Numbered from the stretch's first letter, positions 47,272-56,828 are shown. The stretch is DNA of 64,000 bases from Bdellovibrionales bacterium (GCA_965197425.1 CBDANC010000015.1:202704-266703), one strand, 5' to 3'. Numbers and translations: made by a program. The notes: a model not told the origin generated them from the letters alone.

Positions 47272-48342
47272 TTGAAGTTTATGTTTATAAAGTTTTATAT
47301 GGATTATGCAATAACAACCAGATCATTTGCAAGTGATAATAATTCTGCGGTAATCCCAGAAGCAATTAATGTAATAAATAGTGTAAATAGAAACCATGTT
47401 GGGGCATATGGCAATGATCCTATTACTAAAATGACACAGGAGTTGTTTCAATCTGTATTTGGCAAAAATTCAAGAATGTACCTTGCTTTTAATGGCACTG
47501 GAGCTAATCACCTTTGTTTGATGCCATTTTTGAAATCGTATGAGTCTGTTATCTGTTCTGAGCTTTCTCATATAAATAATGATGAATGTGGTTCTCCAGA
47601 GCGTATCATTGGTACCAAGTTGCTAGCTATTCCAAGCGATGATGGAAAAATTACTCTAGATGGGATTAGGGAAAAGTTGGTAAGGCTAGGAGACCATCAT
47701 CATGTACAACCAAGAGTAATAAGTATCACACAGCCAACTGAAGTAGGAACTTTATATTCGATAGATGAGCTTAAAGCTATCTGTACTTTGGCAAGGGAAA
47801 ATGGGCTTGTAGTACATATGGATGGAACAAGATTGGTGCATGCTGCCTGTGCTTTGGACTGTTCTTTAAAAGCACTTACCTGTGATGTTGGCATTGACTG
47901 TCTATCTTTTGGTGGTACTAAAAATGGATTGCTTTTGGCTGAGGCCTGTGTGTTTTTTAATGGGTATAATGTTCATTCAATCCCTTATTATCAAAAACAG
48001 CTCCTACAGTTACCCGGAAAATCTAGATTCGTATCTGCACAATTTTATGCTTTTTTAAAAGACAACACTTGGCTTAAGTACTCCAAGAATTCCTTAAAAA
48101 TGGCCAAGCTATTGGAGGCTAGTATCTTAAACTTGGGCATTGAAGTAACTCAAAAAGTGGAAACCAACATGGTGTTTGCCAAGATACCCAAACAGAGCCT
48201 AAAGAAGGCCAGAGAAAATTACTTTTTCTATGTCTGGGATGAGTCACCCGATGAAGATATGTACGAAGTAAGGTGGGTCACCTGCTTTGACACTAGTGAA
48301 GAAGATGTTAAAAATTTTGTAGCCAGTCTTAAAGCTCTTTAA
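47272..48342 (+). CDS. ltaE: Low-specificity L-threonine aldolase
   Basis: It has SFASDN near the N-terminus, GTGANHL, and the PLP-lysine block FGGTKNG. The likely start is MDYAITTRSF at 47299. Confidence 0.8.
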   Translation: MKFMFIKFYMDYAITTRSFASDNNSAVIPEAINVINSVNRNHVGAYGNDPITKMTQELFQSVFGKNSRMYLAFNGTGANHLCLMPFLKSYESVICSELSHINNDECGSPERIIGTKLLAIPSDDGKITLDGIREKLVRLGDHHHVQPRVISITQPTEVGTLYSIDELKAICTLARENGLVVHMDGTRLVHAACALDCSLKALTCDVGIDCLSFGGTKNGLLLAEACVFFNGYNVHSIPYYQKQLLQLPGKSRFVSAQFYAFLKDNTWLKYSKNSLKMAKLLEASILNLGIEVTQKVETNMVFAKIPKQSLKKARENYFFYVWDESPDEDMYEVRWVTCFDTSEEDVKNFVASLKAL

Positions 48343-48400
48343 TTCTAAGAGCATCTTTGTTCAGTTACCCATTGCATTCACTGTATTGTAGTTCGGTTAT

Positions 48401-48682
48401 TTATGATGAGAGAATTTTGTTTAATCTGACTAACTCTCTTTCTACTCTTTTTTGAACATGATCATTTTCGTAATTAACAAATTCCACTTTAGATAAATCT
48501 ATTCCGTATTTGTGAAGAGAAACTAGTAGCTCAGAAACAAAAGATTGTGCGGTTGATTTAACCCCAGAGAAGCTAACACAGACAACCTCACCAGGTTTAG
48601 GTTGAATTTCCTCCACAGCTTCAAAAGCACGACTTCTTCCTGATAGAAAACTTCCATATTTTTCTAGCTCTATTAACTTCAT
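48401..48682 (-). CDS. STAS-like small protein (DUF4325-type)
   Basis: It is 93 aa and is translationally coupled (4-nt overlap) to the upstream GHKL ATPase. The block VVCVSFSGVKSTAQSFVSELLVSL resembles the DUF4325 STAS-like fold as I recall it. Confidence 0.5.
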   Translation of the reverse strand: MKLIELEKYGSFLSGRSRAFEAVEEIQPKPGEVVCVSFSGVKSTAQSFVSELLVSLHKYGIDLSKVEFVNYENDHVQKRVERELVRLNKILSS

Positions 48683-49500
48683 TTGAAAGGTACACTCATC
48701 TCAAATAGTACACCACACAATTTGTAATTTAAAGCACTAGATTCAAATTCTTTTACACAAGTCCATTCTACACATGTATTACCGCTTAAGACACGGATCT
48801 TACCAGAACTCTTTTTAATAAAATCAAGGGTTTCATATAACCCAATGCCTCTATATTTAATCTCTGATTTATTGTTGAGACTGCTTTCCAATTCATTGAA
48901 TGATTCCAATATAATTTGCTCCTCATTCCTTCCACGATCCTGGCCAGTTCTTTGATAAGATTTTAAGAATCCCACACCCACATCGGAAACTGCGACCTCA
49001 ACAATTCCCTTATCATCGTAAACTTGTGCGTGAGCGTATCCCCATCCTTGATTTCCCTTCGGGCCAGAGTGAAAATAAATATTGTTGGCAATCTCGCCAA
49101 ATATATCTGCTAATTCAGTCACCAATGAACCAGGAGCTAGAGGATTAAAAACAGCATGACATTTGTCTTCTAAAGTGCAGTCGCGGTCATCAACAATTTT
49201 AAGTAAAGGAAAAAATTTTGCAGAATCTTGTTTGTTGTGTGGATATGTGTATCCAGTACCATCAAATAACCCCATTCTCCCTCCATAGTTCTTAACATTC
49301 TCATTTGAGGGCGGAATTATAAAAACCTTCAACTTACAGTCAAATGCCAAATCAATTATACAACGCACTCTTACTAGAACAGCAGGCGTAAAAAATTGTA
49401 TATCTGATAGGTCAATTTTGATACTTGAGTATTTTCCAGAATGAATGTCATATGGCGACGGGCCTGTCTTTGTAATATCTGCATTAATAGTGAGGTTCAC
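48679..49500 (-). CDS. GHKL-superfamily ATPase (RsbW/SpoIIAB-like kinase fold) with a unique N-terminal domain
   Basis: The N-box is EIANNIYFH (ExxxNxxxH), the G1 box is VSDVGVGF (DxGxG) and the G2 box is YRGIGLYE. Confidence 0.65.
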   Translation of the reverse strand: MNLTINADITKTGPSPYDIHSGKYSSIKIDLSDIQFFTPAVLVRVRCIIDLAFDCKLKVFIIPPSNENVKNYGGRMGLFDGTGYTYPHNKQDSAKFFPLLKIVDDRDCTLEDKCHAVFNPLAPGSLVTELADIFGEIANNIYFHSGPKGNQGWGYAHAQVYDDKGIVEVAVSDVGVGFLKSYQRTGQDRGRNEEQIILESFNELESSLNNKSEIKYRGIGLYETLDFIKKSSGKIRVLSGNTCVEWTCVKEFESSALNYKLCGVLFEMSVPFK

Positions 49501-49654
49501 TAACTTATCTCCTGATCATTATTATTATATCAACAACAGTTCTATCCATCCTTCTAAGTATTAATATTCTCAGATACAACTGTTATATTTATCTCGAACC
49601 ATTCTACCAGGTTTTTATGTAAAGGACATATCTCTGTTTTGATCTAGGCTTAGA

Positions 49655-55255: not shown

Positions 55256-55534
55256 ATAACCTCCCTTTTTGAAGTTTATATTTAAAAAAATAATTTATGT
55301 TTATACCAAGATTCTCTATACCTATACATCATCTACGCACATTCATGAAGGCTCAGAAGGTTGTTTGGCATTTCTCCATCTGCCTCGGTCTTTAAATATT
55401 CATTACCATACCTACTATTAGCTACGACCATTGACACTCTTTGTCCGTTCTGCATAACAAAAAAAGAATATCTATTCGCCTTAATACCACATATTGCTTC
55501 CTCTTGAGAAAGCTTCTAGTTTGTGCTATCACTA

Positions 55535-56557
55535 TTAACCTTCACTTCCAATAGTGGGATTCACATTATTTCTTATGATCTCTAACACTCTTTGAGATGA
55601 AGCTACATTATCCTGTTCGCCTTGAGTAAAGCCAGTATTCTGATGTGAGAAAATGCATTGTGCTGTCTGTAGTAATACAGCACTTTTTGTCGCTTTGTCC
55701 AGACTTGCATCTATAAATTCCTCAAATGTACCCAAGGCATTTTGCCTGTGCTGATTTACCACTAGATTGTGCGACTCAACTCTGTAAATTCTTGCCGACA
55801 AAACAAAGAAAAAAGAAAGCACACTAAACATCAACACTTTTGACAAACTAATTTGAACCAACTTAGAAGTGATGATAGCTTCATTCCAACCCATGGAGTG
55901 ACGTACATTCCAAATAAGAAAAGCAACCAGTACAGCACCAAAACTCCCCGTTACCCAGAGCCATATTTTTTTAGCTTTTTGATGCCTATCTACTTCTTTT
56001 TGGAAATGAAGGATATGTTGAGCCACACCCTCACCAGCAATTTTGTCTCTGGTTTTGCCAAGAATATTACTTAAGGCTGCTTCACTTTCTTCCGCCCTTT
56101 TCTTAAGTTTTTTAATCTCAGCAACATCCTTATCTGCCTGCTGTGTTGTACCTTCACTATTACAAAAGGCAATGATCGGAGCTATTTTCTTAAACCACTC
56201 ATTGTAAGCTCCGTCAATTCGATTAATTATATTATTTCTTTGCTCTAATGGATTACCTTGTTCAGCATTGAAATTCGAAATTTCGTTGAATAAATCCAAC
56301 GCACTCCTTGCATAACCATCAAATTCTACCGCACATGAACTAGTAATGAGGTCGAAATTTACATTTGAGAGTTTGTTAAATAGCTCTGAAATTTGTTCAA
56401 ATAATTTAGCTCCTTCTTGGAAACCTAGCTTTGTTCCAAGATCTTCGGTTCTAACAAGATCCTTTACTTTTATCTTGTCTAGCTCGTCCAAAGATCCCTT
56501 TAAGGAAGACAGAGATTCCTGATGTCTTTGTTTAATATCCTGCACAACACTCCTCAC
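55535..56557 (-). CDS. Coiled-coil protein with two C-terminal-half transmembrane helices (candidate membrane effector)
   Basis: 340 aa with a helical, charged N-terminal region of about 190 aa. TM1 is IWLWVTGSFGAVLVAFLIWNV and TM2 is VLMFSVLSFFFVLSARIY. A conserved-looking block HNLVVNQHRQNALGTFEEF follows. Confidence 0.45.
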   Translation of the reverse strand: MRSVVQDIKQRHQESLSSLKGSLDELDKIKVKDLVRTEDLGTKLGFQEGAKLFEQISELFNKLSNVNFDLITSSCAVEFDGYARSALDLFNEISNFNAEQGNPLEQRNNIINRIDGAYNEWFKKIAPIIAFCNSEGTTQQADKDVAEIKKLKKRAEESEAALSNILGKTRDKIAGEGVAQHILHFQKEVDRHQKAKKIWLWVTGSFGAVLVAFLIWNVRHSMGWNEAIITSKLVQISLSKVLMFSVLSFFFVLSARIYRVESHNLVVNQHRQNALGTFEEFIDASLDKATKSAVLLQTAQCIFSHQNTGFTQGEQDNVASSQRVLEIIRNNVNPTIGSEG

Positions 56558-56806
56558 TTAATTTCTTATCTAGCAGTTAACCAAGCTATTCCAATCGGTA
56601 CTCTGATTAGATATAACTCTCATTTCTTATATAACATTCTATTTAGGAAGGTTAAAAAGACCTGCCTTGTGTCTAACAAGATGCGAATATGTGTGTGATC
56701 CTTAATTAAGTCAACAGTAGTTTAAAAAAAATTGGTAAGTTGCCGTTCTGATCCGCCACGACTCCGATCCAAAAAATTTAGCCTTTGCCAGATCAATGAG
56801 ATTCAG

Positions 56807-56828
56807 GTAAGGCTAATGCTTATGTTGA
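56807..56828 (+). repeat. Right copy of the 22-bp direct repeat (contains the hemJ RBS and start)
   Basis: It is identical to 49877-49898. Confidence 0.9.

Follow-up and report, generated by a model that had tools for sequence, protein, structure and literature searches.

Cis-mobilisable elements (CIMEs) keep their attachment (att) sites, have lost the genes for integration and transfer, and accrete in tandem (Guedon et al. 2017, PMC5704250). Defence hotspots, as described in E. coli (Hochhauser et al. 2023, PMC10121019) and P. aeruginosa (Johnson et al. 2023, PMC10250203), are variable regions between core genes that exist as empty, short and long alleles and carry defence-type cargo. Traits of both are found in an interval of ca. 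8.5 kb between the genes ltaE and hemJ of a Bdellovibrionales bacterium (GCA_965197425.1), which we analysed as part of a 64-kb stretch of DNA (hereafter the window; all positions are counted along its whole length). As in CIMEs, genes for integration and transfer are missing, attL- and attR-like sequences are kept, two segments lie side by side and decay is visible. Unlike in CIMEs, the two islets use not one att site but different cores, one in the 3' end of ltaE and one at the 5' start of hemJ, which lie ca. 130 bp from each other, no parental integrative and conjugative element (ICE), integrative and mobilisable element (IME) or trans-acting integrase was identified, and the host is a small-genome Bdellovibrionales, not a Firmicute. 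As in the E. coli and P. aeruginosa hotspots, the region between the two core genes varies, with an empty, a short and a long allele and defence-type cargo; unlike there, the comparison covers three genomes only, and the scars are unusually legible, with a relic of the original junction preserved inside the island. We consider it reasonably likely that this variable locus holds two adjacent, att-flanked islets without an integrase, which are what remains of site-specific integrative elements, either decayed or cis-mobilisable (CIME-like).

Nine open reading frames (ORFs) lie between ltaE and hemJ, the number that a first-pass annotation of this DNA had counted, and the two pairs of direct repeats that it had pointed to are both present, far beyond what chance would produce. 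The two junctions comprise the following features.

47272..48342, plus strand: ltaE-like gene for a pyridoxal phosphate-dependent aldolase, the last 94 nt of which (48249-48342) are a substitute 3' end from insertion 1
48205..48248, plus strand: left copy of the 44-nt core, attL-like, insertion 1, within ltaE
49654..49809, plus strand: displaced native ltaE 3' end, a pseudogene fragment that holds the right copy of the 44-nt core (49672-49715)
49810..49876, plus strand: relic of the ancestral ltaE-hemJ spacer, colinear with the spacer of the sister genome L001
49877..49898, plus strand: left 22-nt copy, attL-like, insertion 2, being the original hemJ ribosome-binding site, ATG and first codons
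56807..56828, plus strand: right 22-nt copy, attR-like, insertion 2, being the ribosome-binding site and start that hemJ uses now
56822..57250, plus strand: hemJ (UPF0093; Pfam PF03653, E 2.8e-39; start set against L001), the core gene of the right flank, followed by valS

The ltaE pair extends over 122 nt at 86% identity (48202-48323 vs 49669-49790) and encloses a perfect 44-nt core (48205-48248 = 49672-49715) that occurs exactly twice in the window; two matches to this core were never reached in shuffled sequence, even when up to 3 mismatches were allowed. Stretched to 159 nt, the pair contains 38 mismatches, and a perfect run of at least 44 nt then has a probability of ca. 4e-5, the arms that flank the core being ca. 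72% identical over ca. 94 nt. The second pair is a perfect 22-nt repeat (49877-49898 = 56807-56828), likewise present in exactly two copies and reached in 0 of 100 shuffles, and the ca. 36 nt upstream of its right copy resemble the ancestral spacer at ca. 60% identity. Both cores sit at the boundaries of two segments, in direct orientation and with target sequence included, in the manner of attL and attR sites. These segments, insertion 1 (1,467 bp) and insertion 2 (6,930 bp), have the relic of the original junction between them. The substitute ltaE 3' end keeps the frame open up to the stop codon, and the product of the gene matches the NCBIfam GntG and threonine aldolase models, in both cases below their cutoffs.

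How the junction looked before the insertions can be read from L001, the 1.6-Mb chromosome of an uncultured Bdellovibrionales bacterium and the sole close relative recovered in a genome scan with the LtaE protein (LtaE 82% identical). The whole neighbourhood is kept in L001 (mtaB, mnmA, iscS-like, ltaE, hemJ, valS, rnr, ubiB), with a gap of only 56 bp between ltaE and hemJ, i.e., an empty site. Window positions 49654-49800 match the ltaE 3' end of L001 (10915-11062) at 77.7% identity (blastn, E 3.5e-26), positions 49848-49898 match its spacer and hemJ start (11084-11134) at 86%, and homology to L001 restarts exactly at 56807. Owing to this colinearity of 49654-49898 with the L001 junction, the second copy of the ltaE repeat is identified as the native 3' end of ltaE in a displaced position, where it is still followed by the ancestral spacer and by the ribosome-binding site and start codon that hemJ had originally. 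Removal of both segments, which the first-pass annotation had expected to rebuild an arrangement of ltaE, short spacer and hemJ, indeed restores colinearity with L001. To the right of the 44-nt core, the substitute, native and L001 versions of the ltaE end are ca. 72% identical in every pairwise comparison; the incoming ltaE mimic therefore derives from an element or a lineage at about the distance of L001 itself.

The nine ORFs that make up the cargo are given below in the order in which they lie in the window.

48401..48682, minus strand: DUF4325 (STAS-like) protein of 93 aa, the small partner of the following protein (Pfam PF14213, 26.3 bits vs a cutoff of 23), kept in a third genome, L162
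48679..49500, minus strand: 273-aa protein with an N-terminal STAS-like domain and a C-terminal GHKL (Bergerat-fold) ATPase/kinase domain (phrog_3364, E 9e-26)
49892..50551, plus strand: ORF3, a 3'-truncated member of a family of ca. 310 aa, with an invariant RNDxxGHPTKR (R-x5-H) motif
50632..51321, minus strand: MvaI/BcnI-family type II restriction endonuclease, intact (Pfam PF15515 MvaI_BcnI, E 2.4e-36, 126 bits, profile positions 2-227 of 227; PADLOC REase_II)
51329..52576, minus strand: N4/N6 DNA methyltransferase, partner of the endonuclease (Pfam N6_N4_Mtase; PADLOC MTase_II, E 2.8e-91, near full length)
52821..53657, plus strand: ORF6, which opens a conserved two-gene module (the deposited protein has 245 aa, which would put its start at 52920)
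53647..54480, plus strand: ORF7, DUF5677 protein, second gene of the module (Pfam PF18928, E 4e-23)
54695..55255, minus strand: ORF8, 186-aa protein with two winged-helix DNA-binding domains (weak Pfam, PHROG and PADLOC matches at residues ca. 20-80 and 113-165)
55535..56557, minus strand: ORF9, 340-aa all-helical DUF6161-like protein with two hydrophobic segments and a conserved C-terminal HNxxVNQHRQNAL motif

L162 is a 33.8-kb Logan contig that was reached via a methyltransferase match at 90% identity or more, and it is closer to the window than L001 (backbone nucleotide identity ca. 84% vs 76%). With it, three alleles of 0 kb (L001), about 2.4 kb (L162) and 8.5 kb (window) are seen between the same core flanks, so that the comparison across relatives proposed in the first-pass annotation yields an empty site, differing cargo and three alleles in three genomes. 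The ltaE 3' end of L162 is of the substitute type (identical at 70 of 79 nt, vs 56 of 79 for the displaced native copy) and is followed, in window orientation, by the DUF4325 gene, the last codons of the GHKL gene and then directly the endonuclease and methyltransferase genes. After the methyltransferase come ca. 30 unmatched nt, beyond which L162 is window-like from ca. 56766 through hemJ, valS, rnr and ubiB. Window positions 48721-50625, which hold the bulk of the GHKL gene and ORF3, are thus missing as a clean 1.9-kb deletion, and the ORF6 to ORF9 block (52668 to ca. 56765) is missing as well, with no significant repeat at its flanks (a suspected direct repeat around this block reached the same score in 347 of 500 shuffles and was rejected as chance-level). 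In L162, the endonuclease gene (11260-11955 = window 50632-51321) has lost 2 nt, contains an in-frame stop and counts as a pseudogene, and the intact methyltransferase is an orphan methylase in the making.

Nei-Gojobori estimates of synonymous divergence (dS) between the window and L162 separate the island from its flanks.

DUF4325 (STAS-like) gene, island: dS 0.375
endonuclease gene, island: dS 0.31
methyltransferase gene, island: dS 0.335
hemJ, backbone: dS 1.01
valS, backbone: dS 1.06
rnr, backbone: dS 0.78
ubiB, backbone: dS 0.74

The shared island genes (0.31-0.38) are about three-fold less diverged than the flanking core (0.74-1.06). Housekeeping dS above island dS is not expected under vertical descent, so the island segments have a more recent ancestor than the genomes; judged by these values, the island DNA is younger than the split of the lineages and was acquired horizontally. 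Either related elements entered independently at the same sites, or the island was transferred between the lineages after they had split. The same genes with backbone-like divergence, which the first-pass annotation had named as the pattern that would speak against it, are not seen, given that island dS is ca. one-third of that of the backbone. Its picture of a recombination hotspot that accumulates cassettes is supported, albeit by three genomes only: the cargo is variable, and the island erodes as well as accumulates, as is seen from the truncation of ORF3 and from the deletions and the endonuclease pseudogene of L162.

No integrase, recombinase or transposase model from Pfam, PADLOC, NCBIfam or PHROGs matched any of the nine ORFs, and the integrase, excisionase and RES proteins of L161 (a contig with the closest homologue of ORF3, see below) gave no tblastn match in the window, in agreement with the earlier claim that such genes are absent. 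The longest intergenic gap in the island measures 385 nt and is mostly the relic. Terminal inverted repeats were not found just inside the two 22-nt copies. A tRNA target site was ruled out, as there is no tRNA gene in the window.

The islets entered ca. 130 bp apart in the ancestral ltaE-spacer-hemJ junction. Insertion 1, with the STAS-GHKL and DUF4325 pair as its cargo, recombined at the 44-bp core inside the ltaE 3' end and, as it brought its own substitute end, ltaE has stayed intact. Insertion 2 recombined at the 22-bp core over the hemJ ribosome-binding site and start and re-supplies this core at its right end; its cargo is a mosaic of the truncated HEPN-motif gene (ORF3), the restriction-modification (R-M) pair, the pair of ORF6 and the DUF5677 gene, the winged-helix protein and the DUF6161-like membrane protein. 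The junctions may be the work of a recombinase of the tyrosine or serine type that has since been lost or whose gene lies elsewhere. The promoter region native to hemJ would now point towards ORF3; hemJ and valS would then need transcription from element DNA (56558-56806), and their transcription may now depend on what the element supplies; scans of promoter and terminator consensus sequences found no more sites than in shuffled sequence. A 7-bp inverted repeat (GTAAGGC...GCCTTAC, 56807-56843; also 49868-49883 / 56837-56852), with longer imperfect arms in the ancestral arrangement, brackets the ribosome-binding site and start of hemJ. Six of its 7 positions are kept in L001, and L162 does not keep it; the repeat may serve as a dyad to which a recombinase binds or form a hairpin in the mRNA.

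Site-specific integration into gene ends classically leaves perfect cores within strongly diverged mimics of the target and restores the target genes, and this is the pattern seen at both junctions. L162 has the substitute type of ltaE end and the same right-hand junction before hemJ, with other internal content. The modules of the cargo are also seen in other places, each as a unit of its own and in a mobile or defence setting. The lack of a recombinase, the truncated ORF3 and the deletions and pseudogene of L162 fit a decay to cis-mobilisable or dead remnants. The only hint of an ICE or IME origin is the closest ORF3 homologue, which adjoins an integrase in L161.

Several observations weigh on the other side. 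The remaining ORFs of the window encode, by inspection, housekeeping or repeat proteins, with no recombinase or fragment of one within the 64 kb, and as the recombinase is missing from both island and window, the enzyme behind the junctions is a matter of inference. The two cores differ, so two specificities would be needed, and both lie within longer and weaker target homology, which would also fit a homology-driven integration. The comparison within the clade consists of three genomes, and a metagenome scan with a ValS alignment, the peptide patterns of which were over-general, gave only relatives of 52% identity or less and no closer relative or extra allele. Searches for exact copies of the proteins of hemJ (with either of two starts), the endonuclease gene and the deposited ORF3 led to no contig. 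GC content, GC content at third codon positions (GC3) and tetranucleotide composition fail to tell the island from the backbone, so the k-mer and GC test suggested by the first-pass annotation turned out negative. Finally, neither CCWGG (observed/expected 0.88) nor CCSGG (0.91) is avoided in the window.

Homology could indeed have driven the insertions: DNA of a diverged lineage, circularised or linear and with its own ltaE-hemJ junction plus cargo, might have crossed over where the identical stretches are longest, in a RecA-dependent single crossover (Campbell-type) or through homology-facilitated illegitimate recombination. The absence of an integrase agrees with this, as do the origin of both repeats from one ancestral junction region, the homology beyond the cores (ca. 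72% over ca. 94 nt in ltaE and ca. 60% over ca. 36 nt upstream of the 22-nt core) and a substitute ltaE end that is as far from the native one as is the L001 orthologue, which would be expected of sister-lineage DNA. However, the usual minimum identity for efficient RecA crossover is at or above 22 bp, so the shorter core is at or under this limit, perfect cores in strongly diverged arms are a classic att signature, and L162 has the same junction types even though the backbones split much earlier than the island genes, which is more easily explained by reuse of the sites. We consider such a route unlikely, though by no means negligible. The 22-bp repeat, being direct, perfect and exactly at the boundaries of insertion 2, could also be taken for the target-site duplication of a transposon-like element, but the target-site duplications of known transposon families are shorter than 22 bp, and neither terminal inverted repeats inside the copies nor a transposase are present; moreover, the weak spacer homology upstream of the right copy is not expected from a target-site duplication, which makes this origin extremely improbable.

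It is also very improbable that the island is ancestral and was inherited vertically, with L001 having lost all of it by a precise deletion and L162 parts of it. L162 does share island genes and junction types, the composition is backbone-like and deletions do happen at this locus; yet a displaced ltaE end, spacer and hemJ start between cargo blocks are the leftover of an insertion and not the precursor of a deletion, island dS is far below that of the backbone, and homologues of the island genes are sporadic and patchily distributed. An assembly artefact or a chimera of strain variants is barely credible. The sequence does come from an uncultured metagenome-assembled genome in which the proteins are singletons on one 461-kb contig, and repeats can mislead assemblers, but the repeats here are just 22-159 nt long, the reading frames are coherent across the junctions, and L162, an independent assembly from an independent sample, contains the same two paths, one that connects the substitute ltaE end with the STAS gene and one that connects the methyltransferase gene with hemJ.

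In the R-M pair, the full-length PF15515 match and the N6_N4_Mtase match bear out the MvaI/BcnI identity given to it by the first-pass annotation, and the methyltransferase gene lies 7 nt upstream of the endonuclease gene on the same strand (its L162 orthologue is 90% identical). The adjoining, same-strand N4/N6 methyltransferase and the full-length endonuclease match are as in MvaI/BcnI type IIP R-M systems; differences are that CCWGG and CCSGG are not avoided in the window and that the endonuclease of L162 is already a pseudogene.

The GHKL ATPase with a STAS-like partner, also named in the first-pass annotation, is confirmed by a DUF4325 match above the Pfam cutoff and by the motifs and profile matches of the larger protein. 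The two genes overlap (48401-48682 and 48679-49500). An exhaustive search collected 246 cluster representatives of the GHKL family at E <= 0.001. Residues E136, N140, H144, D173, G175, G218 and G220 are invariant in the family (motifs ExxxNxxxH, DxGxG and GxGL), and the family profile matches the ATPase domains of histidine kinases, CheA and SpoIIAB at E 1e-5 to 5e-4, whereas the single-sequence Pfam match (HATPase_c_2) reaches E 0.18 only. With the same profile, the N-terminal 90 residues match STAS proteins at E 0.003-0.02. The GHKL N, G1 and G2 motifs and the STAS-like partners recall partner-switching modules (SpoIIAB/RsbW GHKL kinases with SpoIIAA/RsbV STAS antagonists), but here the GHKL protein has an N-terminal STAS-like domain of its own, the partner is a divergent DUF4325 protein, no sigma factor or effector is linked, and the pair travels as a stand-alone two-gene islet. 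Such an islet is seen in L171, where the same pair (50% and 57% identity, the latter for the DUF4325 partner) is flanked on both sides by housekeeping genes. Phage records yielded a single, weak relative of the GHKL protein. A role of the pair in defence is only suggested, by a weak match to the PADLOC candidate PDC-M65A (E 1.3e-4) and by PHROG membership.

The HEPN-like ORF of the first-pass annotation fared less well. Within the RNDxxGHPTKR motif of the ORF3 family, R115 and H121 are invariant in 45 members, and the R-x5-H motif therefore stands; but ORF3 matched no HEPN profile in Pfam, NCBIfam or PADLOC, and its model (mean predicted local distance difference test score, pLDDT, 88) matched no PDB fold at E <= 0.001, so that the HEPN assignment follows from the motif, with the name of one homologue (P0109, called 'HEPN domain-containing' by a source) as the sole further support. 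Moreover, ORF3 is a fragment. Its homologous part (window 49982-50548) corresponds to residues ca. 2-198 of the ca. 310-aa family, and as the missing C-terminal third is found nowhere in the window, ORF3 is a truncated remnant. Its own start is probably GTG 49961, which is preceded by GGAG at 49950-49953 (GGAG-N6-GTG, 49950-49963). The frame is also open from the duplicated hemJ ATG at 49892, through 30 codons (49892-49981) without counterpart in the family; this extension is probably accidental, though expression of a chimeric and truncated protein may now be under the control of the promoter and ribosome-binding site that hemJ had ancestrally. The closest homologue of ORF3 (64% identity) is part of the segment 4871-8292 of L161, where it follows directly on genes for an excisionase-like protein, a tyrosine integrase and a HEPN_RES_NTD1/RES protein. 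It is translationally coupled to this HEPN_RES_NTD1/RES toxin gene, and the arrangement in L161 suggests that an integrative element carries a RES-associated module of two genes.

The ORF6 family is rare, with six relatives besides ORF6 itself in an index of 5.8 billion proteins. ORF6 homologues overlap a DUF5677 gene immediately downstream in both of the independent contexts that were examined (the near-identical copies L165-L167, and L168), as ORF6 does in the window. A two-gene operon of related build is the Aditi (DitA/DitB) anti-phage system, reportedly described by Millman et al. in 2022. ORF7 shares a DUF5677-type region with the C-terminal half of DitA (PADLOC DitA, E 1.2e-13, profile positions 246-443 of 486 only), but the N-terminal half of that protein has no counterpart in ORF7, and ORF6 matches neither DitB nor any other PADLOC model at E <= 0.01; the pair is thus related to Aditi and, by the defining profiles, not a member of it. 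The only published test that we found concerns a DUF5677 ORF of Enterococcus, which was not among the genes reported to be protective (PMC12632615).

ORF9 has 51 homologues (five of them annotated as PF19658, DUF6161) that share an invariant C-terminal HN..N.HR.NAL motif, and its model (mean pLDDT 83) matched no PDB fold. One homologue (L163, 5962-6987, 44% identical) is placed between brxC-like and pglX-like methyltransferase genes in a BREX-type locus, and a second adjoins VapBC and a resolvase; an ORF8-like neighbour is absent beside both. Viral contigs contained no member of the ORF6 family, and two contained distant relatives of ORF9. PDB searches returned nothing for four island proteins (single-sequence searches) or for ORF3, ORF6 and ORF7 (profile searches).

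From their context in the island, we infer that the cargo may act in phage defence beyond the R-M pair as well. The R-M pair would probably restrict unmethylated DNA, and the other modules may work by abortive-infection-type or other mechanisms.

Elsewhere in the window, positions 38552-43583 (minus strand) carry three tandem paralogues of 545, 534 and 576 aa, with near-identical N-termini that resemble signal peptides and with internal HTH_Tnp_1-like repeat arrays (DNA periods of 102-153 nt). In L001, rnc adjoins mtaB and no such block is present, which makes it a second indel in the window, of ca. 5 kb. A gene for a 23S rRNA intervening-sequence protein family member (2116-2430, minus strand; four-helix bundle) adjoins a fadB-like gene. 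Two ankyrin proteins are encoded as well, one of 1,209 aa with ankyrin repeats and a hydrophobic N-terminus (15053-18682, plus strand) and another at 13859-14515 (minus strand). Together with the 1.6-Mb size of the sister genome, the two ankyrin proteins suggest a lifestyle tied to a eukaryotic host.

A bolder and rather improbable extension would be that the islets are cargo-only cassettes without a recombinase of their own, each of which mimics the end of the adjoining core gene (the last ca. 50 ltaE codons; the hemJ ribosome-binding site and start) and so remains harmless to both genes, serviced in trans or by host recombination, in a reduced-genome and probably host-associated lineage, with at least one rare module being a new anti-phage system. 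Candidates for the latter would be the pair of ORF6 and the DUF5677 gene, the STAS-GHKL and DUF4325 pair and the DUF6161-like membrane protein. Taken as it stands, this is a well-documented but ordinary island that reveals no new kind of element or mechanism. It does provide a small and clean case of a variable locus that forms and erodes, with an empty site, two scars with replacement of gene ends, an island younger than its surroundings and a decaying sister allele, and it flags three rare modules for defence screens from a poorly sampled lineage of small-genome Bdellovibrionales.

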